A stretch of DNA of 64,000 bases from a virus. Shown here one piece after another: positions 887 to 62,981 of the stretch. Position 1 is the stretch's first letter, and every line of letters begins with the position of its first letter. Both the position numbers and the translations under genes were made by a program. Location of the stretch: positions 49,294 through 113,293 of IMG/VR virus record IMGVR_UViG_3300042878_002532. One strand, given 5' to 3'. Under the pieces are notes generated by a model. The model was not told where the DNA came from. It was given only the letters and a program-made list of their open reading frames with translations, and did not search any database.

Positions 887-2047
887 TTATTTTAGAATGT
901 TTACTACTTCTGGGTAGTATTTGCATATATTTTGATTCTTTCCTTCATAAGGAATGGCTGAAAGTGCGTATCTCATAGCATTTAATCTTCCAATCTTTTT
1001 GTCGTTTGAGTTTATTATAACCCAAGGTGTAGTCCTACTTGATGTAAGGTTGAACATCTGATTTTTGTAGTGTCCGATTATCTCCCATTTATCAACAACT
1101 TTGGCGTCATTCGGTGAGAACTTCCAGTATTTCAAAGGACTTTGTTGTCTTAAATCGAATCTTTTTAGTTGTTTTTCTTTGGTAATAGAGAACCAGAACT
1201 TAATAAGGTGAAGACCTTGTTTCTTTATCATTTTCTCTTCCCAATCTACCACTTTTTCCATGAAGTCTTTGTACTGATCTTCTGTACAATAACCCATTGC
1301 TGGTTCTACTACTGCTCTGTTGTACCAAGATCTATCAAAGAATACTATTTCTCCTTCTTTAGGCATGTGTGCCTCATATCTAGCGAACCAGTTTTCTTTC
1401 TCTTCTGGAGTTGGAAGTCCTAAAGCAACTACTCTGAATCCTTTTGGATTTAAGTATTCGACGAATCTTTTTATTGTAGAACCTTTTCCTGCAGAGTCTC
1501 GTCCTTCGAATACTATAGCTATTCTCTTACCGTTCTTCAGAACCCATTCTTGAAGTTTCATAAGCTCTACTTGTATCTGATATTTCTCTGATTCGTATTC
1601 TTTTCTAGTAAGTATAGATCTCTCACCTTCGAACTCATCAAAGTGTTGAGCCTGAGCACCAGTTTTAATAACTGATATCCTGTTATCTATAGATTTGGCG
1701 AAGTCATCAAACTGTTTTCTTATGTTACTTTTGGTATCTCTTCTTTTGAGTTCCATAAGTTGATTTATCTTCCTAAGAAGTGTGTCGATGTTTAAGTCTT
1801 GTACGACCTCTGGAGTGAACTCGTTGTTAAGTTCTCTCATTATTATATCTACTTCGATTTTTTCAAAGGATTTGTATTCTACTTTGTTTGTTTGAAAGTT
1901 GTAGACAATATTGTCCAATATAGAACTTTTATACTCTCCAAGTCTTGTCAGTATGTTCCTTTTTATCTGTTCGATATTTTCGGGATCCATCTTGTCAATC
2001 CTAAGCTCTTCTTTTATAAAATCCAAGAATTTACGTAAATTCTTCAT
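887..2047 (-). CDS. ppk2: Polyphosphate kinase 2 with an approximately 150-aa N-terminal extension
   Basis: FEGRDSAGKG (Walker A), FDRSWYNR and QSPLKYWKFS motifs. Likely start MKNLRKFLDFIKEE at 2047, just downstream of a TATATA element. Confidence 0.92.
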   Translation of the reverse strand: MKNLRKFLDFIKEELRIDKMDPENIEQIKRNILTRLGEYKSSILDNIVYNFQTNKVEYKSFEKIEVDIIMRELNNEFTPEVVQDLNIDTLLRKINQLMELKRRDTKSNIRKQFDDFAKSIDNRISVIKTGAQAQHFDEFEGERSILTRKEYESEKYQIQVELMKLQEWVLKNGKRIAIVFEGRDSAGKGSTIKRFVEYLNPKGFRVVALGLPTPEEKENWFARYEAHMPKEGEIVFFDRSWYNRAVVEPAMGYCTEDQYKDFMEKVVDWEEKMIKKQGLHLIKFWFSITKEKQLKRFDLRQQSPLKYWKFSPNDAKVVDKWEIIGHYKNQMFNLTSSRTTPWVIINSNDKKIGRLNAMRYALSAIPYEGKNQNICKYYPEVVNILK

Positions 2048-39882: not shown

Positions 39883-40065
39883 TTAAACATAATTATTTTT
39901 GGTAAGTTTGGCGTCTTCTCTTTCCAAGAAGCCTTTTAATATCTTGTCTATTAGTTTAGACTTGTTTATAGAGTTCTCTTCGCAATACTGCTCGAACTCT
40001 TTATAGGTCTCTATATCAATAGAGAAACCTACTTTTAGCTTGTTGACACCTGATTTCCTTCCCAT
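39883..40065 (-). CDS. Ribbon-helix-helix (CopG/Arc-like) DNA-binding protein
   Basis: KVGFSID (strand), ETYKEFEQYC (helix), NKSKLIDKIL (helix). Confidence 0.7.
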   Translation of the reverse strand: MGRKSGVNKLKVGFSIDIETYKEFEQYCEENSINKSKLIDKILKGFLEREDAKLTKNNYV

Positions 40066-50969: not shown

Positions 50970-51335
50970 ATGTACTTAAATAATAGAGAACTTTACATAG
51001 AATTAGTAGTCAGCAAAGCACAGGGAAGACTTACAAGGCCCGCTCAAAAAATGCTAGAGCTTTTAGCAAAGAAAACAATCAAAAAAATGAGATATTGGTC
51101 GAATGACGACAAGATGGACTGTTACCAAAGTGGACTTCTATATGTATTTCAAAACTGGTATAACTTCAACGAAGAGAAATCAGTAAATGCCTTCGCTTAT
51201 TTCACCGAAATCTTTAAAAGGGGAATAGCCAAAGGATATAACGATCTTTATAAAAAGAAAGGTGACAACGAACATCAAATAAGACTTATTTCCATAGAAG
51301 GATCTAATGACGGAATGGGTCTACACTCTTTATAG
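50970..51335 (+). CDS. Late-transcription sigma factor (T4 gp55-like)
   Basis: YLNNREL...NFNEEKSVNAFAYFTE matches the gp55-type pattern YVNNKE...F..EKS.N.FAY.T. Confidence 0.8.
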   Translation: MYLNNRELYIELVVSKAQGRLTRPAQKMLELLAKKTIKKMRYWSNDDKMDCYQSGLLYVFQNWYNFNEEKSVNAFAYFTEIFKRGIAKGYNDLYKKKGDNEHQIRLISIEGSNDGMGLHSL

Positions 51336-51485
51336 ATGATATCAACAACAAAAATATTTACATACGACATAGTCGCCGCTCCTAGTTTTGGAATGGCTAC
51401 TATGTCTTTTAATATGACTATAAATCCTTCGAGGAGAACTCTTAGAAGAAGCAAGATCAAGAAGGTATTTCTACAATCTTTATAG
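51336..51485 (+). CDS. Unannotated 49-aa peptide resembling the Asp-bearing strand of the prohead protease
   Basis: MISTTKIFTYDIVAAPSFGMATMSFNMTINPSRRTLRRSKIKKVFLQSL versus KKLFTYDIVADPGFASAKMS in the protease gene at 60879. Confidence 0.6.
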   Translation: MISTTKIFTYDIVAAPSFGMATMSFNMTINPSRRTLRRSKIKKVFLQSL

Positions 51486-51657
51486 TTATCTCTATCTCTA
51501 CATTCTTATCTTTGAATTCTGCTAATTTTGCGTCAACAAAATCTGATGGATTGTGAAGGCTCACATGATTTTTCTTAATACGGGTTTCAATACCAAAATT
51601 GTCTTTTGCTTCAAATACTCGTCCTTGGTATTTTTCTGTGTTGCTTGATGAAATCAT
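51457..51657 (-). CDS. Small hypothetical protein
   Basis: MISSSNTEKYQG...; TAAATTTG at 51702-51709 upstream. Confidence 0.55.
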   Translation of the reverse strand: MISSSNTEKYQGRVFEAKDNFGIETRIKKNHVSLHNPSDFVDAKLAEFKDKNVEIEITIKIVEIPS

Positions 51658-51719
51658 AATATCTATTTTTATGCTAATATATGTATTATTTATTACATCC
51701 ACAAATTTATATATACTAT

Positions 51720-52403
51720 ATGGAGAGAATAGATAGATTTAATGTATTTGAGGCCAAAATTGTTCCTTTGAACAGAATGCCCAGAAGTAGCCGAAAACCA
51801 GAGAGATCCGGAAGATCCGGAAGATTACTTACTGATGAACAAAAATACTATGATGAAAACCAAATAGAAGATACAAGTGGTCCAAAACCCGCTATGTTAT
51901 TTACAGATGTTGTAGGATCTTCTAAAATGTGGTCCGACGATCCACAAACTATGAGCATACAACTCGATAAACATTTTAAGATTATGGATAATCTTGCTAG
52001 AAAGTATGGTGGTTTTGTGGTTAAAACAATCGGTGACGCCTTTATGGTATATTTTCCAAAAAACGAAAAGTCATTAGAAAATGCTGTTGATTTTGCGGTA
52101 GAGGTAATCAAAATTGAAGAGCTTCCACTTAGAATAGGAATATGCTCTGGTAATATGACTGCCAAAAAATGTAGAATACAGAATGTTGAGCTTGTAGACT
52201 TTTTTGGAGATGTTGTGAACACTGCATCAAGAATGGAGTCCAAAGTTGCAGAGCAGGGTGGTATTGCATTTACCTCTGTTGATAATATTGATAATCAAAT
52301 GGAGTCTATTTCAAAAAAATACAAATTGGTTAAGATAACTGGTAAAGGTATTCCAGATTTAAAAGGTGTGAAAGTCGAATTTGCTTATAAGTTAAAAGTA
52401 TAA
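51720..52403 (+). CDS. Class III nucleotidyl (adenylate) cyclase with a capsid-targeting-like N-terminus
   Basis: FTDVVGS, VKTIGDAFM, LRIGI and DFFGDVVNTASR; start MERIDRFNVFE just behind a TATATA element. Confidence 0.9.
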   Translation: MERIDRFNVFEAKIVPLNRMPRSSRKPERSGRSGRLLTDEQKYYDENQIEDTSGPKPAMLFTDVVGSSKMWSDDPQTMSIQLDKHFKIMDNLARKYGGFVVKTIGDAFMVYFPKNEKSLENAVDFAVEVIKIEELPLRIGICSGNMTAKKCRIQNVELVDFFGDVVNTASRMESKVAEQGGIAFTSVDNIDNQMESISKKYKLVKITGKGIPDLKGVKVEFAYKLKV

Positions 52404-52431
52404 AAAAACCCACTCAAATGAGTGGGTTTTT
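52402..52431. terminator. CCCACTC-family bidirectional terminator
   Basis: AAAACCCACTCA-aa-TGAGTGGGTTTT. Confidence 0.8.
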
Positions 52432-52435
52432 AGTT

Positions 52436-53509
52436 TTAGTTTTCTTCCAAAACTTCTTCGTCTTGTAGAATAGTTCTTACCATTCTATCAACTATTAAAT
52501 ATGGATCTCCGTTAGATGCTGGTCTTCTATCTTCGATATAACCAATCGCATTTGGATCGTTTATCGTAGAAGGAATTCTAATAGATTTAGTTCTATCTCC
52601 AATACCCCATCCAAAGTCTTTGATAGACGATGTTTCGTTCGCACCGGTTAGTCTTTCGTCATTGTTCTCTCCATATACCGCTATATGTTCTGCATGAGTC
52701 TTCTCAAGCTTCTTACACATTTCGATTGCAATCTCTTTTTTGTTTACTTTGTCTTCTCTAATATTTTTTGTCGAAAAGTTTACATGCATACCTGAACCAT
52801 TCCAATCATTTCCTTTAAATGGTTTTGGATCTAATTCGATTCTATAATCAAACTCTTCACTCAATCTATGTAAAATGTATCTTGAAATCCATAGTTGATC
52901 CGCACCGTCTTCTGCAAATACAGTTCCTACTTGATATTCCCATTGTCCTAAAGCAACTTCTGCATTTGTTCCGGATATAGAGATTCCTGCATTAAGACAA
53001 AGGTCTGTATGTGCTTCTACAAACTCTCTTCCTACTACATTGTTAGCACCAACTGAACAATAGTATTCACCTTGTTCTCTTGGCTCATCTTCTGTTGGCC
53101 ATCCTAATGGTCTATTTGTTTTGTTATCAAAGATAAAATACTCTTGTTCCCATCCATACATAGTTTCATCGTCATATTTTTTTAACGATTCGGTCATTTT
53201 AACTCTTGTATTACTTTCGTGTGGAGTACCATCAATATTATAAACCTCACAAAGAACTAAAATAGAGTTTGTTGTAAATGGATTATGAAAATAGTTTTTA
53301 GGAACTAATAGTAATTCTGATTTAGATGTTTCTGCTTGGTATGTTGAAGATCCATCAAAGTTCCATACTGGTGCTTTTCTCAAACCATTTTTGTATGAAT
53401 CTAAAATATTTGTTTCATCTTCGATGTGTTTCAGATTTACGACTTTTGTTTTTGTACGTATTTGTTGTGTTTTGGCACCATCCAACCAAATATATTCTAA
53501 CTTTTGCAT
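52436..53509 (-). CDS. glnII: Glutamine synthetase type II
   Basis: EYIWLDG, WNFDGSST, EQEY, NAEVALGQWEYQVG, DWNGSGMHVNFS and YIEDRRPASN. Confidence 0.93.
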   Translation of the reverse strand: MQKLEYIWLDGAKTQQIRTKTKVVNLKHIEDETNILDSYKNGLRKAPVWNFDGSSTYQAETSKSELLLVPKNYFHNPFTTNSILVLCEVYNIDGTPHESNTRVKMTESLKKYDDETMYGWEQEYFIFDNKTNRPLGWPTEDEPREQGEYYCSVGANNVVGREFVEAHTDLCLNAGISISGTNAEVALGQWEYQVGTVFAEDGADQLWISRYILHRLSEEFDYRIELDPKPFKGNDWNGSGMHVNFSTKNIREDKVNKKEIAIEMCKKLEKTHAEHIAVYGENNDERLTGANETSSIKDFGWGIGDRTKSIRIPSTINDPNAIGYIEDRRPASNGDPYLIVDRMVRTILQDEEVLEEN

Positions 53510-56175: not shown

Positions 56176-57888
56176 ATGGCATCGTATAACTATAACAACA
56201 ATCAAGAAGGACAGGGCATGGGCTTTGTAAATTCTGCAGTAGAGAATAAAGGTCTTTTTAGTAGAATACTTAGAACTCTTTCAAACTACGGAATGAACTA
56301 TGACGATATGATAATTCGAAACCAAGTAGGTATTGGTATAAACGAAGATCCATATGCAGCCAAAGGAAACTCTATGTACGACTTCTTTTCACAAAGAGCT
56401 GTTGCATCGGTTTTAAATAGAAAGTCTATTCCTTACTTAGATAAGGCTTATGCTGACAAAAGAAGGATTCTTAGAGAATATTCTATCAAAGACGAAATTC
56501 GTGATATGATTAGTGCCGTTGCGGATGAATGTATCGTTTACAATGATGATAGAGACTTCTGTTCTCCTAGAGCAATATCAAACGATTATTCTCAAGAAAT
56601 AAAAGACAAATACCAAGAGTATTTTGAGAAAATCTATAATAAATATGGATTTTCAGATAGTATCACTGCTTGGAATATGATAAAAGACTTTCTTATTGAT
56701 GGTTATGTTGCAGTAGAGATTGTTTATGATGATAAAAAGAAGAATATCATTGCATTCAACAGACTTAGACCTGAAAGTTTAGTTCCTGCATATGAACCAA
56801 ATGTAGGACATTTATGGATTCAGTTTCCTGAAGATCCTCAGCTTAGAAGAATATTTTTGGATTCACAGATTGTATTCATTTCTTATTCTACACAAAATGA
56901 TTATTCAGAGACTTCTTATATTGAAGGACTTATTAAACCATATAACCAGTTAAAGATTCTTGAACAAACTAGAATCATGTTCAACGTAATCAATGCAACT
57001 ATTTATCAAAAGTTTACTATTCCAATTAAAGGTCTTTCTAGACAAAGAGCGGAAGAACAGATTGGTCAGTTGATACATGACTACTCTGAGGAAGTTGAAT
57101 GGGATGACACACTTGGTACACTTACCTTGAATGGATCTAAACATCTTCCTTATAACAAACAAGTTTGGTTTCCTGATGGTGATGCAGGTACTCCTAATAT
57201 GACATTAGAATCTCCACAAGGACATGACTTAAATGAAGAATCAATGCTTAAGTGGTTCCACCAGGCACTTAAAAGAGCTAGTAAAATTCCATTGACACGT
57301 TTCGAAGGAGAAGGTGGTGGTGGTAATCTAATATCAGATGCTGCTGAGATGACAAGAGATGAGATTAAGTTCCATAACTTTATATCTAGAATACGAGCAA
57401 ACTTTAAAGAACTTATAGTTAAACCACTTAAACTACAGATGCTTATCGAGTTTCCTGAGTTGAAAGAAGATGAGATTGTTCTTAATCAAATGGATATAAT
57501 CTTCTACACTAATCAAATATTTGAAGAGTGGAAAAAGATAAACAATTTGTCTAAAAAGGCGGAAGCACTTGGAACTCTTACTGCAGTAATGAATGGTGAG
57601 AAACCTTACTTCCATATCGAATGGTTGATGGATAATGTCTTCAAACTTACTCCTGAAGAGAAAGCGGAAAACCAAAAATACTGGGCAAAAGAGGCTGCTG
57701 GTGCCGGTGCTGGACCTGCGGGTGCTGCTGGTGCCGAAGGTGGTGCCCCTGCACAAGGTGGTGAAGGTGGTGAAGCTCCTGCTGAAGGTGGACAAGCAGC
57801 CGCTGAAGCTCCTGCACAGGGTGGACAAGCAGCTCCTGAAGCTCCTGCCGAAGGTGGTGCCGAAGGTGGTGCAGAATTTGAATTCTAA
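56176..57888 (+). CDS. Portal protein (T4 gp20-like)
   Basis: AVADECIV, FLIDG, IKPYNQLKILE, KIPLTRF and EMTRDEIKFHNFISR; acidic Gly/Ala/Pro tail. Confidence 0.92.
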   Translation: MASYNYNNNQEGQGMGFVNSAVENKGLFSRILRTLSNYGMNYDDMIIRNQVGIGINEDPYAAKGNSMYDFFSQRAVASVLNRKSIPYLDKAYADKRRILREYSIKDEIRDMISAVADECIVYNDDRDFCSPRAISNDYSQEIKDKYQEYFEKIYNKYGFSDSITAWNMIKDFLIDGYVAVEIVYDDKKKNIIAFNRLRPESLVPAYEPNVGHLWIQFPEDPQLRRIFLDSQIVFISYSTQNDYSETSYIEGLIKPYNQLKILEQTRIMFNVINATIYQKFTIPIKGLSRQRAEEQIGQLIHDYSEEVEWDDTLGTLTLNGSKHLPYNKQVWFPDGDAGTPNMTLESPQGHDLNEESMLKWFHQALKRASKIPLTRFEGEGGGGNLISDAAEMTRDEIKFHNFISRIRANFKELIVKPLKLQMLIEFPELKEDEIVLNQMDIIFYTNQIFEEWKKINNLSKKAEALGTLTAVMNGEKPYFHIEWLMDNVFKLTPEEKAENQKYWAKEAAGAGAGPAGAAGAEGGAPAQGGEGGEAPAEGGQAAAEAPAQGGQAAPEAPAEGGAEGGAEFEF

Positions 57889-57936: not shown

Positions 57937-58413
57937 TTATGCTGCTGTTTCATATGTGTCTACATAGAAGTAAACTACTTTATTATCTATTATATGCGGC
58001 CTTAAATCGACGGTCATTGAATTTTCCATAAGTTCTTTTACTACTTTACCCATAGGAGTTGACAAAACTTTACATCTTAAAGTTAGTTTTTCCACTTTGT
58101 TTTCTTTTAAAATAAAAGACATTGATTTTATTGTAAGTACACTCATTTGTAGTGAAAGAATATTTCCACTATTTCCAAGCTGAGCAAACATAGATATTGA
58201 TTCTATATCGAATTGTATTTTTTTACCAGATTCTAAAATACTTGTTAGTCTAATATCTCTTTTGAACGAAGTCCACTCTTTGTATCTAGACATCAAATCT
58301 TCAAATTGATCCAAAGTATTGTTTTGTAACAATACTTCGTAATCAAAATATTCTAGATTATCATCTGATTCAGAAGGATCTAAATGAGACCAATCTTTGA
58401 ATAACTGTCCCAT
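57937..58413 (-). CDS. Protein with a degenerate prohead-protease-like C-terminal segment
   Basis: CKVLSTPMGKVVKELME versus protease IRLLSTYWGKEAKSLVD; also carries KRDIRLTSILE. Confidence 0.55.
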   Translation of the reverse strand: MGQLFKDWSHLDPSESDDNLEYFDYEVLLQNNTLDQFEDLMSRYKEWTSFKRDIRLTSILESGKKIQFDIESISMFAQLGNSGNILSLQMSVLTIKSMSFILKENKVEKLTLRCKVLSTPMGKVVKELMENSMTVDLRPHIIDNKVVYFYVDTYETAA

Positions 58414-60296
58414 TAGAATCTCATGAAGTTTATCTGTTTCTTCTCTAAATCTACTGATTTAACAACCGCTTTAATAGGATCTCCCAATCTAATCTGTTCT
58501 CCAAACTCATTGTATGCTAAATATTTATCTACATCTGCAGTCCATTTCCCATTAAGAGTTTCTAATCTTATCAAACCTTCACATTTGTTTTCTGTAATCT
58601 CTACATAGATTCCTCTATCCATTACTCCGGTAACAATACCATCGAATACCTGACCGATTCGGTCCTGAAGATATTCAGCTTGTTTGTATTTGATAGAATC
58701 TCTTTGTGCTCTGGATGCCACAAGTTCTCTAGCAGAACACCATTTTGCTTGTTCTTCAATCTTTGTAGGATTTCCTTGCTTTCCAGTCGTTAGTTTATCA
58801 AATAATATTCTATGTGTTATTAAATCTGGATATCTTCTGATTGGAGAAGTAAAGTGTGAATAGTGTGTGAATCCTAATCCATAGTGTCCTATGTTCTTTA
58901 TAGTATATACTGCCTTCGACATTGATCTCGTAACCAAAGTCTCAATCATATTTTCTTCAGGAGATCCTTTTATCTCTTTTAAAAGGTGATTAAGGTTATT
59001 TTTCAGTACATCTCCTTCCTCATCTAACTCAAGCTTGTAACCAAAATTGGTACATATACTTTGAAGAGATGCTAGCTTGTCACCGTTTGGTTTGTCGTGT
59101 ACTCTATATACGTTGTGCCATTGGTCTTTTGCTAAAAGTTTGGCAACTGATTTGTTTGCCAATAACATATATTCTTCAATCAATTTGTTTGCATCTTTCT
59201 GTTCTTTGAAGTAGACTCCGATTGGTTTTTTGTCATCTTCTGCAAGTTTGAACTTTACTTCAATACCACCCATTTCGATAGATCCATTTTTTATTCTAGT
59301 TCTTCTGATTTTTTTAGCCAATGTGTCTAATTGTCTAATCTCTTTATGATAGTCTCCATCTAATCCTTCGATTATCTCTTGTGCTTCTTCGTATGCATAT
59401 CTTCTGTCAGAGTGTATTACAGTCTTTCCGTGCCAAGTATCTTTTATCTTTCCGTCTTTATCTAATGTAAATACTGTTGAAAATGCCAATCTATCCACAT
59501 TTGGTTTAAGTGAGCATATTCCATTAGAAAGTCTTTCGGGAAGCATAGGTACACATCTGTCTACTAAATAAACTGATGTTGCTCTTTTGAACGCTTCTTT
59601 ATCTAATTCTGTTCCAAACTTTACATAGTGTGCAACGTCTGCAATATGTACTCCTACTTTTATGTTATTAGGATCTCTCATATCTATTGAGATGGCATCA
59701 TCAAAATCTTTTGCGTCTACAGGATCTATTGTTATAGTAGTCACGTCACGCATATCCTTTCTTGATTTAATTTCTTTTTCGGATATTATCTCAGGAACAA
59801 GTTCTGCTTCGTTAAGTACTTCTTGTGGAAATTCAACAGGTAGTCCATATTCGTACATAATGGCATTCATTTCCGTATTGTTATCTCCAACAAATCCAAG
59901 TATCTTAGTAATCTTTCCTCTTGGTGATTTTTTGTCAAGATCCCAGTCTAAAAACTCTACTAACACTTTTTGTCCATTTTCAACATCCGACTTTCCTTTT
60001 ATGTAGAAGTCTACCGCCATTTTAGAACTATCGGGTACTACAAAGATTGTATCGTTTTTTACTTGAGCAGTTCCCACAAACTCTGTTTTAAATCTTGAAG
60101 TTGTTTCTAATACTTTACCTTCTAGTTTTTTTTGTCCTTGGAATATCTCTACTCGAGCAGTATCTAAGTGAAGTGCATTAGCAGTCTTCTTTTTATGTAT
60201 AAAGATTTCTTTACCATCTACTTTTATATTGGCGTTTCCTGACGTGGAGAATTCTACTTGCGTTTCGAATATGTCTCCTTCTTTAATTTTATTCAT
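58413..60296 (-). CDS. rnr: Ribonuclease R (RNB plus S1 domains)
   Basis: TIDPVDAKDFDDA, VHIADV, LIEEYMLLAN, HYGL and HFTSPIRRYPDL; C-terminal S1 domain. Confidence 0.95.
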   Translation of the reverse strand: MNKIKEGDIFETQVEFSTSGNANIKVDGKEIFIHKKKTANALHLDTARVEIFQGQKKLEGKVLETTSRFKTEFVGTAQVKNDTIFVVPDSSKMAVDFYIKGKSDVENGQKVLVEFLDWDLDKKSPRGKITKILGFVGDNNTEMNAIMYEYGLPVEFPQEVLNEAELVPEIISEKEIKSRKDMRDVTTITIDPVDAKDFDDAISIDMRDPNNIKVGVHIADVAHYVKFGTELDKEAFKRATSVYLVDRCVPMLPERLSNGICSLKPNVDRLAFSTVFTLDKDGKIKDTWHGKTVIHSDRRYAYEEAQEIIEGLDGDYHKEIRQLDTLAKKIRRTRIKNGSIEMGGIEVKFKLAEDDKKPIGVYFKEQKDANKLIEEYMLLANKSVAKLLAKDQWHNVYRVHDKPNGDKLASLQSICTNFGYKLELDEEGDVLKNNLNHLLKEIKGSPEENMIETLVTRSMSKAVYTIKNIGHYGLGFTHYSHFTSPIRRYPDLITHRILFDKLTTGKQGNPTKIEEQAKWCSARELVASRAQRDSIKYKQAEYLQDRIGQVFDGIVTGVMDRGIYVEITENKCEGLIRLETLNGKWTADVDKYLAYNEFGEQIRLGDPIKAVVKSVDLEKKQINFMRF

Positions 60297-60681
60297 TATC
60301 TTTTTTCTTTTTTGATATATTGTCGACTCCGTATTTTTCAATCAGAGTGTTTTTCATTTTTGACAATACTTTTTTATTCTGTATGGGATAGTCTACTCCG
60401 AAGTTTTTTCTTAGAGTTTCTTTTCGTTTGACCTCTGAGCATTTTCTACACGAATAGTCTCCCCAGTTTTTGTTGTCGTATTTTAAGTAGTTTTTGTAGA
60501 TGACTTCTTTTTCAGTGCCACATCCATCACATTTGCATTTTACTTTATAATGTGATCCGTTTGGTAGAAGTCCAACGGGAATGATTATTATCTCACCTAT
60601 TGAAATATCGTATCCTAAGTCCTCATAGTATTGGTAGTTGGACTCGTTTATTTTAATTTCAATTTCTCTTGTAAGTATCAT
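60289..60681 (-). CDS. Zinc-ribbon and 'YGV'-repeat protein resembling a homing-endonuclease N-terminal DNA-binding region with no nuclease domain
   Basis: KCKCDGCG...CRKC, FGVDYPIQN and KYGVDN. Confidence 0.55.
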   Translation of the reverse strand: MILTREIEIKINESNYQYYEDLGYDISIGEIIIIPVGLLPNGSHYKVKCKCDGCGTEKEVIYKNYLKYDNKNWGDYSCRKCSEVKRKETLRKNFGVDYPIQNKKVLSKMKNTLIEKYGVDNISKKKKDNE

Positions 60682-60878
60682 GTTTCTATTTTGGTGGATA
60701 TAAAAAATCCACCCATTCTTTTTATAAAAAAACATGATTTAGTTTTGTTAATGGTGATTTTTTTTTATAAAAAAATAAAAATAAGACACTTCTATAAAAA
60801 ATCCACCTTTATAATTTCTACGGTTTTGAAGGTTTATATATACTCTAATAATTATACAAAAAAAAACACAACTATTTC

Positions 60879-62981
60879 ATGAAACCAGTTCTAATTGTAG
60901 AAAATTCAACGAACTCTCTTATAAGAGAAAGTTCAAGCACTGGTAAGAAGGACTATATTTTGGGTGGTACATTCACTGAATTCGGCGTTAAAAACCGTAA
61001 TGAGAGAATCTACACTGCTGCAAAATTCCTTCCTGCTTTAGAGGAGATGAATGAAAGAATGAACAATCTTGGAATTGTCTACGGTGAATTTGATCATCCA
61101 GACGTTTTCGATACTTCACTTTCAAGAGCTTCTCACGTAATTACGAAAGCTAATTACGTAAAAGAATCAAACTTGGTAGAAGGTGAAATCAGATTATTAA
61201 GCACTTATTGGGGAAAAGAGGCAAAATCGTTAGTAGACGATGGTTGTCCTATTTTCGTTTCATCTAGGGCTGCAGGTATTACTGAATCTGATGGCACTGT
61301 ATCATTAAAAAAACTATTTACTTACGACATCGTTGCTGACCCAGGTTTTGCATCGGCTAAAATGAGTGTAAAGGTTCTTAATGAGTCACTTGGTTATGAC
61401 AACCCAAAATCTAACTTTAGGATATATGATTTATCCAACGAGTCAAAAACGGAAGAGTTATTTAATATGAACAACAACGAATTTGTTACTAAACAACAAC
61501 TAACTGACTACTCTCAGTATTTGGTTAAAGAGTTGGCATCAACTAAAAAAGAAGTTAAGACTGCCATTACTAAAGGGAATATGAACCCTAAAAAACTTGA
61601 GCAATTGCTTGAGTATTACGATGAATTGAACAACACTAATTCACAAGTAGCTAAATATTTAGATTACTTAGCTGAGAAAGTTCAAATTATGGTAAATGAA
61701 AACAAGTCTTTGAAAGAAACTACAGAGAAATTAATCAAACATAACGATTATTTAGCTGAAAATCTTGAAAAGGCTGTAAACTATTCTGAATACTTAGCAG
61801 AAAACTTAGATAAGAACATTGCTTATTCTGAATATGTTGCTGAAAACTTAGACAAAAACATTGCTTATTCTGAGTATGTTGCTGAAAACGTAGACAAAAA
61901 CATTTCTTACACAGAATATGTTGCTGAAAACTTAGACAAAAACATTGCTTACTCTGAATACTTAGCAGAAAACTTAGACAAAAACATTGCTTACTCTGAA
62001 TACATTGCTGAGAGCTTAGACAAATCTATTGCTTATGGTGAGTATATCGCAGAACACGTTGATAACTCTATTGCTTACTCTGAATACTTAGCAGAACACG
62101 TTGAAGGTAACATCGCTTACTCTGAATACATTGCTGAACATTTAGATGATAATATTGCTTACTCTGAATACATTGCTGAAAATTTAGACAAATCTATTAA
62201 CTACCAAGGATTAATCGTTGAGAAGTTAAACGGTGGTAAATTGAACGAATCAGAAGGAGCATTCCCATCATTAAATGCTGCAGGATTTGAAGATCTTGAA
62301 GATGAAAACGATGATGAAAATGAAAATGCATATGGATCTGAAGAAGAAGACGAAGATGAAAACGGAATCGCAGAAATGACTCCTAATCATGCATACGCAC
62401 ACGAAGATAATGAAGATGAGAATGAAGATGAGGATTGTGGCCCAGGTGTTACAGGAAACTCAGATTCAGAATTATCAGAATCTATTGATAAATTAATCGA
62501 AGAAGCTAAAAAACGTAAAGTTTCTGAGACATCAGATTTGAATTTCTTGAAATTCATGTCTAAATCACAAGTTGATAGCTACTATGCTTTAACTAACGAA
62601 GAACAAGAGACAGTAAAACTACACATAAACGAAAGTAGCTACTTCACACAAAAAGAAGTATTGTCTTTAATCTCTGAAGCGTTATCAACTAAAAACGAAT
62701 CTCTTGAAGAAAGAGTAATCAGAATGATGCCTGAGAACACAAAGGCTATCTGGAATCAGTTAAATGAGTCTGCAAAAAAATCTATCATTTCACAAGCTAG
62801 ATTATATCCTGCAGAAGTATTAATGACTGAAGGTCAAGTTGAACATTTTTGGGCAACAAGAAACCTAAAAAAGAATGAATCTGTATCTAAAAAACTTGTT
62901 TCTCACGAAGCTCTTATCCAAGAAGATAAGTTGTCTGATAATGACGTAACAGCTATTATGGAAAGATTCAAAAACATTTAA
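60879..62981 (+). CDS. Prohead protease (T4 gp21-like) fused to a scaffold/core domain
   Basis: NRNERIY, GEFDHP, VSSRAAG and TYDIVADPG; followed by a coiled coil, 14-aa repeats and an acidic linker. Confidence 0.88.
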   Translation: MKPVLIVENSTNSLIRESSSTGKKDYILGGTFTEFGVKNRNERIYTAAKFLPALEEMNERMNNLGIVYGEFDHPDVFDTSLSRASHVITKANYVKESNLVEGEIRLLSTYWGKEAKSLVDDGCPIFVSSRAAGITESDGTVSLKKLFTYDIVADPGFASAKMSVKVLNESLGYDNPKSNFRIYDLSNESKTEELFNMNNNEFVTKQQLTDYSQYLVKELASTKKEVKTAITKGNMNPKKLEQLLEYYDELNNTNSQVAKYLDYLAEKVQIMVNENKSLKETTEKLIKHNDYLAENLEKAVNYSEYLAENLDKNIAYSEYVAENLDKNIAYSEYVAENVDKNISYTEYVAENLDKNIAYSEYLAENLDKNIAYSEYIAESLDKSIAYGEYIAEHVDNSIAYSEYLAEHVEGNIAYSEYIAEHLDDNIAYSEYIAENLDKSINYQGLIVEKLNGGKLNESEGAFPSLNAAGFEDLEDENDDENENAYGSEEEDEDENGIAEMTPNHAYAHEDNEDENEDEDCGPGVTGNSDSELSESIDKLIEEAKKRKVSETSDLNFLKFMSKSQVDSYYALTNEEQETVKLHINESSYFTQKEVLSLISEALSTKNESLEERVIRMMPENTKAIWNQLNESAKKSIISQARLYPAEVLMTEGQVEHFWATRNLKKNESVSKKLVSHEALIQEDKLSDNDVTAIMERFKNI
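61750..62222 (+). repeat. Approximately 11 coding 42-bp repeats (NLDKNIAYSEY[LVI]AE)
   Basis: gaaaacttagacaaaaacattgcttactctgaatac units. Confidence 0.9.

Follow-up and report, generated by a model that had tools for sequence, protein, structure and literature searches.

The window, which is the whole stretch of DNA analyzed here (64,000 nucleotides), carries a gene for a small class III nucleotide cyclase with a short N-terminal tag. The contig to which it belongs, 113 kb in length, is about 17% of the genome of a huge lake-water phage, and its portal protein shows 82% identity to the portal of an uncultured phage of 634 kb. The tagged and predicted adenylate cyclase is borne by an uncultured lake megaphage. 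The neighbors of the gene are a gp55-like gene, a small unknown ORF, and a glutamine synthetase gene. The features on which the following discussion depends are:

51706..51716, + strand: promoter-like motif TTTATATATAC, with a core TATATATA that ends 4 nt before the ATG (from motif enrichment and site lists)
51720..52403, + strand: open reading frame of the tagged cyclase, 227 aa, with the TAA stop codon at 52401-52403
51720..51752, + strand: N-terminal tag, residues 1-11 (MERIDRFNVFE), a candidate capsid-targeting sequence and protease site
51753..51812, + strand: variable linker, residues 12-31, unconstrained, and basic in this subclade only
51804..51825, + strand: in-frame 9-bp tandem duplication, AGATCCGGA x2.4, which doubles the RSG of the RSGRLL motif (RSG-RSG)
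51813..51842, + strand: clade-specific motif RSGRLLTDEQ, residues 32-41, with R32, S33, R35, and Q41 invariant in 26 sequences
51891..52301, + strand: class III cyclase catalytic domain (Pfam), residues 58-194, holding D63, K102, D106, R138, D160, N167, and R171
52404..52431, either strand: two-way terminator-like hairpin of 12 pairs with T runs on both strands, common to the convergent glutamine synthetase gene
60879..62981, + strand: gp21-type (T4) head maturation protease, 700 aa (phrog_207, E 1.6e-29)

The start codon at 51720 was favored over an in-frame upstream ATG at 51681 because the methionine of the tag is universal, while the upstream ATG is present in only 2 of 10 syntenic relatives. 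Guanylate_cyc (PF00211) is the sole Pfam domain of the product and was matched over residues 58-194 with 76.8 bits (cut-off 21.9, E 2.1e-21); a six-frame search of the contig with the same model gave one match only, at the cyclase gene. No sensor domain was found by Pfam, NCBIfam, or PHROGs, all of which were empty besides the cyclase domain, and the ESM Atlas returned a family name and nothing further. A stand-alone class III cyclase with adenylate-type residues and no sensor domain had been proposed in a sequence-only reading of this DNA, and both points stand, the gene being complete and phage-borne. All six residues named in that reading are present: the two metal-binding aspartates, D63 in FTD and D106 in IGD; the adenine-type pair, K102 in VKT and D160 in VDFFG; and the transition-state N167 and R171 in NTASR. 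In a phmmer alignment to PDB entry 5oyh, K102 and D160 fall opposite the Lys of VKTIGDAY and the Asp of WDLVGD, and D63, D106, N167, and R171 are aligned with the equivalent residues of 5oyh and 6aoa. The 5oyh entry is an engineered rhodopsin adenylyl cyclase with K497/D566 as its adenine site (bioRxiv 10.64898/2026.08.12.744502). D63, K102, D106, D160, and R171 are invariant in 51 aligned family members, and N167 is found in at least 90% of them. Pairwise dN/dS for the whole gene was 0.09-0.14 in five of six comparisons (synonymous sites were saturated in the other one), and values of 0.07-0.12 for the catalytic domain show strong purifying selection. Since a single chain has every residue needed in the two halves of the active site, the protein should act as a homodimer, which is its predicted working form.

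The best solved relatives of the family profile are 1fx4 and 1fx2 (E about 1e-13), which have in common with the phage family the pattern D-x-x-x-S-[ST]-x-x-W at the start of helix 1. These two structures are of GRESAG4.1/4.3 from Trypanosoma brucei and, together with Ma1120 from Mycobacterium avium (4wp3, 4wp9) and 5oyh, they resemble the phage cyclase in fold family and in the six functional residues. Unlike them, the phage cyclase is virus-encoded, has no receptor, membrane, or sensor part, and possesses the 11-residue tag and an RSxRLLTDxQ motif.

The cyclases form a virus-specific clade, tagged in huge and jumbo phages and untagged in giant-virus bins; the tag was found in 26 of 27 distinct phage-locus proteins and in none of the seven from giant-virus-type loci. 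The giant-virus origin of the untagged loci is based on three things: the names of the IMG/VR bins, a TBP-like neighbor at 23.4 bits, and, in one bin, a separate contig with an NCLDV capsid gene; loci L047-L049 lay outside this search. Diplonemid cyclases are the nearest cellular kin of the clade. In a quick tree of 80 rows the inner branches of the viral clade have mostly support values below 95, and the tree favors no one direction of transfer among giant viruses, phages, and protists.

The linker evolves freely, with a pN of 0.55-0.75 that is roughly equal to pS. The sequence-only reading had described this linker as basic and as containing a 9-bp tandem duplication. The basic character is correct for the subclade of the query but does not extend to the family, in which, among 115 relatives, only 18 have a net positive linker, as against 82 with a net negative one and 15 with no net charge. 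The duplication is real, and perfect 9-bp tandem duplications number 5 in the window versus 0.475 in mononucleotide shuffles. Both the basic linker and the duplication are quirks of the subclade and not family features. The conserved element of the region is instead the RSxRLLTDxQ motif, which had not been singled out. It lies near the C-terminus in most relatives and on the N-terminal side in the subfamily of the query, having moved from the former position to the latter; the C-terminal version comes with paired Cys. None of the 20 long relatives checked, eukaryotic and bacterial, has the motif, and the PDB alignments, by which it might be placed on solved cyclases, do not extend to it.

The tag, on the other hand, is constrained at its codons, whereas the linker is not, as judged by pairwise substitution analysis. 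In the query, hydrophobic residues I4 and F7 are followed by V9-F10-E11, with Ala12 next; among 26 sequences with only 51-88% identity to the query, E11 is invariant and at least 90% have A12. An [I/L/V]-x-E site occurs in 113 of 114 full-length relatives, ending at residue 11-14 (at residue 19 in two). At P3 there are 66 cases of I, 30 of L, and 17 of V, even though the search pattern permitted F, M, Y, and W too, and 92 relatives have Ala at P1'. In 98 of the 114, positions 4 and 7 are hydrophobic and fit the pattern M-[KREQDH]-x-[ILVM]-x-x-[FWY]. With the tag removed, the mature proteins are mostly basic (median pI 8.4).

This arrangement resembles the capsid-targeting sequences of T4 cargo. 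Residues 4 and 7 of the T4 sequence are reported to direct targeting and residues 8 and 10 processing (PMC9026906), and gp21-type prohead proteases all cleave after Glu (PMC5694885). Compared by sequence, IPII and IPIII of T4 both begin MKTYQEFIAE, with Ala following the cleaved Glu, and the tag of the phage cyclase is one residue longer than that of IPIII. T4 cargo and the phage cyclase are alike in having a short N-terminal propeptide, hydrophobic at 4 and 7 and ending in [I/L/V]-x-E before Ala, as well as a gp21-type protease in the genome and a basic mature protein. They differ also in the cargo itself. No cyclase is reported among T4 cargo in the sources as available, while in the lake phage the putatively packaged and cleaved cargo would be a cyclase.

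The candidate protease is encoded within the same window. It is 30-36% identical to annotated gp21-type proteases of T4-like cyanophages, and tblastn matched it to records annotated as 'prohead protease gp21' or 'prohead core scaffold and protease'. Its own N-terminus has L-I-V-E at residues 5-8. A gp21-type protease is also present in four of five other cyclase-bearing phage records; phrog_207 gave no match in one record that is 91% complete. We infer that the protease at 60879-62981 reads and cuts the cyclase tag.

The sequence preceding the gene may also associate it with the structural genes. The same class of motif as that at 51706-51716 is found 5' of the genes for the portal, head protease, terminase, and head-completion (gp4-like) proteins, and the motif and its spacing are kept in 9 of 9 syntenic relatives. 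In a second lineage, a jumbo phage contig of about 250 kb has its own flavor of tag and its own motif, ATAAATAA, which is located 5' of the cyclase gene and likewise of the tail sheath gene. The motif of the lake phage may act as a late promoter and, since it is only 4 nt from the ATG, the mRNA would have little or no leader. Contig pieces from one RNA library (X15) cover 51482-52416, and one piece from another (X19) lies within the cyclase gene; these indicate presence in the libraries only, and DNA carry-over is possible. The comparison took in contigs of four RNA libraries; parts of the stretch that they leave uncovered are uninformative, and the cover says nothing on timing. The targeting tag claimed in the sequence-only reading is supported as a conserved N-terminal sequence that resembles the capsid-targeting type of T4, and the genome has a gp21-type head protease and, before the gene, a promoter motif of the structural-gene type.

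Identity to relatives is 68-74% for the cyclase and 89-100% for gp55 and the portal, and at the nucleotide level it is 78-84% in the cyclase domain versus about 85-90% in the flanks. Exchange of the cyclase as a cassette was considered and dropped, the dip in nucleotide identity being only moderate.

The best explanation, to which we give about an even chance, is that a minimal class III adenylate cyclase is loaded into the prohead by its tag, cut by the head protease, and acts on host ATP. Transcription of the gene would occur alongside the structural genes from a late-type promoter. Residues 1-11 would serve as a T4-type capsid-targeting sequence that brings the cyclase into the prohead core, where the gp21-type protease would cleave after Glu11 to leave a basic 24-kDa enzyme amid the packaged DNA. 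The enzyme may then be injected with the DNA and convert host ATP to cAMP prior to any phage gene expression. The cAMP would have to act on host receptors, because no cNMP-binding (PF00027) match was found in seven phage records (the 113-kb contig, the 634-kb LR745206, and five more) and no GAF (PF01590) match in five. What the sequences show directly is the enzyme family with its intact catalytic and adenine-type residues, the conserved tag, the protease, the promoter motif, and purifying selection; that the protein is packaged, cut, and active, what it makes, and what this acts on are inferred.

The main alternative is an active but unpackaged adenylate cyclase, an auxiliary signaling gene whose product is made in the course of infection and raises cAMP in a cell already infected. 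The tag would then be a different address, or a peptide for assembly or regulation that many proteins of this phage have. The frequency of the tag speaks for this. The strict tag pattern is present at 14 of 124 gene N-termini versus 5 of 653 internal Met windows of this genome, a contrast that favors the packaged reading, but the 14 amount to about 1 in 9 genes; so many cargo proteins would be a high number for a capsid, and the tag could therefore be some other kind of address. (A plain pattern was used for these genome-wide counts in place of an HMM built from the cyclase tags, which at 4 bits matched 16 of 124 N-termini and 17 of 653 internal Met windows, a weak separation due to a poor alignment.) Nor is the tag significantly tied to a gene having its own promoter motif: the strict pattern is found on 7 of 46 genes with the motif and 7 of 78 without (Fisher p = 0.38, in a test that operons blur), and the broad pattern gave p = 0.12, so no such link is claimed for this genome. 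Glutamine synthetase, a metabolic gene, adjoins the cyclase in half of the syntenic loci.

Auxiliary adenylate cyclases have also been published in phages. In the literature searched, a phage adenylate cyclase was found only for pelagiphages, beside curli genes, and there too it was read as changing host behavior, according to the accessible part of the report (PMC9599517). As far as that part describes them, those cyclases are next to curli (type VIII secretion) genes in a curli/histidine kinase/FecR cluster of small podoviruses and are treated as partner auxiliary genes, and no tag or packaging is mentioned; their likeness to the lake-phage cyclase is by description only. No paper on a tagged or packaged cyclase was found in the literature searched. 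The word 'cyclase' is not in the main text of the 2020 huge-phage paper and is used for other enzymes only in the 2021 jumbo-phage survey, as available; the supplementary tables of both may list such genes. Against an unpackaged enzyme, the conserved positions of the tag coincide with the targeting and cleavage positions of T4, with P3 limited to I, L, or V and P1 to Glu; untagged forms of the enzyme occur only outside phages; and the promoter motif is the one that precedes head and tail genes. On balance we regard the unpackaged enzyme as rather unlikely.

It is improbable that the cyclase makes cGMP, cCMP, or cUMP, or a flood of cAMP, in order to jam a host defense of the Pycsar or Pucsar type through occupied or mis-triggered cNMP-binding effectors. 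Defense signaling by cUMP, cCMP, and cGMP through CNB-domain effectors does exist, according to the available parts of two reports (PMC11224242; bioRxiv 10.64898/2026.08.12.744502), and a target in the host would agree with the lack of any phage-encoded receptor in the records searched. Six PADLOC PycC models matched the cyclase (E 7e-7 to 0.014), weakly and partially and with at most 26.8 bits, far below the 76.8 bits that the general model of class III cyclases gave. For five of them the match is confined to the N-terminal half of the domain, the best being over residues 58-129, and for one it reaches residue 174. The PycC entry of the PDB, 7r65, was matched at E 0.93 only. The adenine-type K/D base-recognition pair is invariant in 51 of 51 sequences, and the cyclase gene is tied to no defense locus. 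PycC and the Pucsar cGMP cyclases are, like the phage cyclase, stand-alone or nearly stand-alone class III-type enzymes in phage-host conflict, and have weak HMM similarity to it. They are, however, host-encoded, with a CNB-domain effector as partner and other base-recognition residues, as far as the same two sources describe them, whereas the lake cyclase is phage-encoded and has adenine-type residues, and no partner effector or cNMP-binding gene was found nearby or anywhere in the seven phage records. Membership in Pycsar was rejected, there being no cNMP-binding TIR or membrane effector in the searched records, and the interference with cyclic-nucleotide immunity suggested in the sequence-only reading found no specific support.

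A protein without catalytic activity, either a remnant or a decoy that binds nucleotides, kept for a structural role, is very improbable. Following the first metal Asp, members of the family have an unusual GSS where GFT is common, but all catalytic residues are kept even at about 35% identity, and the strong purifying selection described above acts on the domain.

Returning to the packaged cyclase, a functional parallel may be Alt of T4, an enzyme that acts on the host at injection, as the phage cyclase would by analogy. ExoY, CyaA, and the anthrax edema factor are class II cyclase toxins of bacteria, dependent on an activator from the host and directed at eukaryotic cells. What they would have in common with the phage cyclase is the idea of a ready-made cyclase handed to another cell for a flood of cAMP; the lake enzyme differs in being of class III and in that a phage would hand it to a bacterium. 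If true, the injected cyclase would be the phage counterpart of bacterial cyclase toxins.

The wider proposal is that huge and jumbo phages inject a capsid-borne, ready-made adenylate cyclase with their DNA and hijack host cAMP signaling in the first seconds, using an enzyme family common to megaphages and giant viruses of protists. We put this forward tentatively, as somewhat short of an even chance. The 11-residue tag, the small size of the enzyme, and the predicted new N-terminus at Ala12 offer testable handles. The family links diplonemid protists with the giant viruses of eukaryotes and with huge bacterial phages, and RSxRLLTDxQ is a conserved but movable motif within it. If the tag works as in T4, cAMP would join Alt ADP-ribosylation and the anti-restriction function of IPI among the effects of pre-made, injected phage proteins, and the cargo of uncultured megaphages would become readable from sequence.

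The tagged cyclase gene lies between a late sigma gene and the head genes, in the following order (window coordinates):

50970-51335, a T4 gp55-like late sigma factor (phrog_234), the first gene in this order
51457-51702, minus strand, a small ORF (66-81 aa) separating the sigma gene from the cyclase
51720-52403, plus strand, the cyclase, 227 codons with stop TAA
52404-52431, a two-way terminator-like hairpin after the cyclase stop
52436-53509, minus strand, a type II (eukaryote-like) glutamine synthetase (Gln-synt_C, Gln-synt_N), convergent with the cyclase, followed by two small genes, a gp4-like head completion protein and two more genes
56176-57888, the portal protein
58413-60735, minus strand, within the head-gene module between portal and protease, an RNase II/R-family exoribonuclease (RNB 370 bits, CSD2, S1) and a homing-endonuclease-like gene
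60879-62981, plus strand, a head maturation protease of 700 aa (phrog_207, E 1.6e-29)

A six-frame search found a single cyclase copy in the whole contig. Its sole Pfam domain is PF00211, the adenylate and guanylate cyclase catalytic domain (residues 58-194, 76.8 bits with a curated cut-off of 21.9 bits), and neither NCBIfam nor PHROGs adds another domain, in agreement with the sequence-only reading of a sensor-less enzyme. The catalytic residues named in that reading, D63, K102, D106, D160, N167 and R171, are all there and have identical partners in the alignment with PDB 5oyh, a rhodopsin cyclase engineered to an adenylyl cyclase, in which the Lys of VKTIGDAY and the Asp of WDLVGD align with K102 and D160. 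The adenine-recognition site of 5oyh is given as K497 and D566 (2026 preprint, bioRxiv 10.64898/2026.08.12.744502). In a 51-member family alignment reaching down to about 35% identity, D63, K102, D106, R138, D160 and R171 are invariant and N167 is retained in at least 90% of members. All active-site parts are present on one chain, which is the look of homodimeric class III cyclases. By its residues the protein is assigned to the class III cyclases, an identity that we hold with high confidence, and ATP is its likely substrate. Over the whole gene, pairwise dN/dS was 0.09-0.14 in all but one of six comparisons (the remaining one was saturated), and the catalytic domain gave 0.07-0.12; these ratios are rough, since silent sites are near saturation. 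In linker residues 13-30, replacement sites change as fast as silent sites.

The N-terminus resembles the capsid-targeting tags of T4. Internal proteins IPII and IPIII of T4 start with MKTYQEFIAE followed by Ala (T4 record), and the cyclase starts with MERIDRFNVFE followed by Ala; positions 4 and 7 are hydrophobic in all three, and each has an [I/V]-x-E site directly before Ala, one residue later in the cyclase. The first 10 residues of IPIII were described as enough for head incorporation, residues 4 and 7 mainly governing targeting and 8 and 10 processing, and the T4 prohead protease, gp21, carries its own LIE-9 site (PMC9026906). T4 tags comprise 10-20 residues, and the proteases of T4, phiKZ, 201phi2-1 and SPN3US all cleave after Glu (PMC5694885). 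The head protease of the present phage starts with MKPVLIVEN, which fits the presumed cut motif and recalls LIE-9 of gp21. Its protease domain matches 756 phage records. Many of these carry T4-like phage annotations, either prohead protease gp21 or prohead core scaffold and protease, and are about 30-36% identical to it. The protease-family match covers the first ~280 residues, and the ~420-residue tail may be a fused scaffold.

M1 and E11 do not vary among 26 relatives with 51-88% identity to the query, and A12 is found in at least 90% of them. The full N-terminus is present in 114 of the best 120 relatives, and 113 of these have aliphatic-x-Glu near it, the lone exception reading Ala-Phe-Glu. 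The Glu is residue 11 in 79, 12 in 18, 13 in 11, 14 in 3 and 19 in 2, and is followed by Ala in 92. The aliphatic residue is Ile (66), Leu (30) or Val (17); Phe, Met, Tyr and Trp, which the pattern permits, were not seen in the 113. The pattern M-[KREQDH]-x-[ILVM]-x-x-[FWY] is fitted by 98 of the 114. Over the contig, the strict tag pattern occurs at 14 of 124 called gene starts versus 5 of 653 internal Met windows, and the tag is therefore a genuine N-terminal feature, not a composition effect. Since an N-terminal extension with hydrophobic-x-Glu is carried by 26 of 27 distinct phage-locus proteins from IMG/VR and by none of seven from giant-virus-type or similar untagged loci, which begin 4-15 residues ahead of the first strand of the domain, the tag is an add-on that goes with the phage setting, distinct from the enzyme itself.

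The contig is a single virus sequence of 113,293 bases (33.6% G+C, 17% of a genome by CheckV), of which the window is the right-hand 64 kb. Its portal is 82% identical to that of LR745206.1, an uncultured phage of 634,780 bp, 47-79% identical to those of four more uncultured records of 636-735 kb, two of which are alike in length and coordinates, and 36% identical to that of one 462-kb record. Genomes larger than 634 kb were placed in the 'Mahaphage' clade, with Bacteroidetes hosts predicted (2020 huge-phage paper). Near-identical DNA was found in 14 lake-water runs, 12 of which may be the source series. Ten IMG/VR loci, with eight distinct cyclase sequences among them, keep the order gp55, cyclase, gp4, portal, at identities of 68-74% for the cyclase, 98-100% for gp55 and 89-96% for the portal. 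The small ORF at 51457-51702 is retained in all ten at 65-98% identity. The glutamine synthetase (356.7 bits with NF041605, under the cut-off of 500) is present in only four of the ten, so that it was either inserted or lost recently.

Within 50 bases upstream of gene starts, the most frequent 8-mers are pieces of TTTAATATATA, which precede 33-35 of 124 genes versus about 1 expected; TAATATATA occurs 40 times, 36 of them within 50 bases upstream of an ORF of at least 45 codons. A sister form, TTTATATATA, is found upstream of the portal, protease, large terminase, gp4-like and cyclase genes and of those for 1310-aa and 1388-aa proteins. The TATATATA core ends 4 bases before the cyclase ATG, with motif and spacing kept in nine of nine syntenic loci, and TTTAATATATA lies 4-5 bases before the ATG in two more distant cyclase loci. 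The cyclase motif may be read as a late-type promoter, given the gp55-like factor of this phage and the structural genes that the motif also precedes. The two forms, TTTAATATATA and TTTATATATA, lie either about 17-35 nt or 3-7 nt from the ATG (examples at window 38177, 39883 and 51720 versus 56176 and 60879). The short spacing suggests that some genes have mRNAs with little or no leader, and the cyclase transcript would be nearly leaderless. A polyphosphate kinase 2 (window 887-2047, minus strand; PF03976 254.6 bits, ~146 extra N-terminal residues) starts with the same kind of tag (MKNLRKFLDFIKEE), with TAATATATA 20 nt upstream.

A different motif, ATAAATA[AT], occurs 70 times in G003, a ~250-kb jumbo phage contig, 52 times upstream of ORFs, among them the genes for the tail sheath (phrog_34521, E 3.9e-87), for a tail protein and, with the motif 5 bases before the ATG, for the cyclase; two of ten ORFs scanned there received a name. 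Many G003 genes bear a tag variety particular to that lineage. At least four paralogous genes of G003 (loci L084-L090) start with MSFINWG.E..EQ, each behind a ATAAATAA motif (examples at contig positions 40049, 100473, 107990 and 119425). As the query-type and G003 cyclases each follow their own structural-gene motif, two lineages with differing promoter motifs both place a tagged cyclase behind it. In the query contig the tag and the promoter motif show no significant link (tag on 7 of 46 genes that have their own motif versus 7 of 78 that lack it, p = 0.38), and operons may hide one.

The 9-bp tandem duplication noticed earlier was confirmed at window 51804-51825 and is in frame. Five perfect 9-bp tandem duplications occur in the 64-kb window (17912, 21255, 50324, 51804 and 57755) versus 0.475 in shuffles; duplication by in-frame slippage seems frequent in this megaphage genome. 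The basic linker described with it holds for the query's subclade and not as a wider trait. C-terminal of the linker is RSGRLLTDEQ (residues 32-41), whose first three residues the duplication doubles and in which R32, S33, R35 and Q41 are invariant in the 26 relatives. Of 95 stand-alone representatives of 180-400 residues, 63 have RSxRLL C-terminal of the domain, four, the query's subfamily, N-terminal of it, and 28 do not match the pattern; it was not found in 20 long eukaryotic and bacterial relatives and was found in one 550-residue protein of unknown origin. From these positions and absences, RSxRLL is a signature of the viral clade, relocated in the query's subfamily. In its C-terminal version the motif is placed between the final domain strands, often with a Cys on either side; in P0122, P0125, P0132, P0144, P0149 and other family proteins a conserved Cys pair brackets it (C-x6-14-RSGRLLT-x5-6-C). 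The pair would put four Cys in a homodimer, which could form a metal site or disulfides. The N-terminal version of the query is without Cys.

A word-indexed search gave 421 relatives with lengths of 124-398 residues; the top 120 all measure 159-233 residues and have PF00211. Scanning 1.84 billion representatives in full with HMMER yielded 8,961 matches at E <=0.001 and 252 at E <=1e-10; the top 150 are mostly stand-alone proteins of ~200-260 residues, and the long relatives carry several cyclase domains. P0126, P0131, P0133, P0136, P0137 and P0146 have 1,400-4,800 residues and three or four strong cyclase domains each. Three long relatives looked up belong to eukaryote protein sets, two named diplonemids (Diplonema japonicum, Namystynia), and Diplonema papillatum adenylate cyclases are among the longer relatives listed. 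By sequence, such eukaryotic multi-cyclase proteins (those looked up being diplonemid) appear to be the closest cellular relatives of the viral clade. Among solved structures, the family profile matches those of Trypanosoma brucei GRESAG4 cyclase domains best (1fx4, 1fx2; E about 1e-13). Eighty catalytic domains were chosen for a quick maximum-likelihood tree, with three bacterial TPR-linked cyclases placed at the root. In it, 52 stand-alone sequences form a clade (SH-aLRT 95, inner branching mostly unresolved) and 25 mostly eukaryotic domains another (support 93), within which sits a fourth row labelled bacterial. The query subfamily and three other sequences labelled tagged, one of them without a tag-like N-terminus, group together in 17 rows (support 98).

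The IMG/VR scan gave 94 relatives, with 79 loci kept. Loci L004-L023 share the query's architecture. L024-L044 have a second one, with a T4-type portal on four of their five longest contigs (63-125 kb, CheckV 13-50% complete), and belong to jumbo phages of about 250 kb or larger. L029 and L045-L048 carry giant-virus bin names; one such bin holds an NCLDV major capsid gene on a different contig, and one giant-virus-type locus has a TBP-like neighbour (23.4 bits). On these architectures, portals and bin names the clade is common to huge phages, jumbo phages and giant viruses of eukaryotes, as far as binning can be trusted. No gene consistently adjoins the cyclase across the differing contexts of the IMG/VR loci.

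A cNMP-binding domain (PF00027) was not found in the contig, in the complete 634-kb LR745206, whose single tagged cyclase is 48% identical to the query, or in five more records with a cyclase, including two of 91% and 98% rated completeness; a GAF domain was not found in five records searched. The same PF00027 and GAF searches match in 11 and 12 of 14 control genomes. In print, adenylate cyclase is described for pelagiphages, adjoining curli genes (PMC9599517); a tagged or packaged phage cyclase was not found in the literature searched.

The main rival to head delivery is that the same enzyme acts solely inside the infected cell and the tag has another purpose. That the cyclase jams cyclic-nucleotide defence, as also proposed earlier, is possible and has no specific support. 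The best-supported account is a tagged, head-delivered adenylate cyclase, packaging itself being given an even chance. The cyclase would work like the tag-loaded internal proteins and Alt of T4. The T4-type tag would carry the sensor-less cyclase to the prohead, where it would be trimmed after Glu11 (predicted mature protein 216 residues, 24.3 kDa, pI 9.0); the trimmed enzyme would be ejected into the host, probably a member of the Bacteroidota, and would there make cAMP acting on host receptors.
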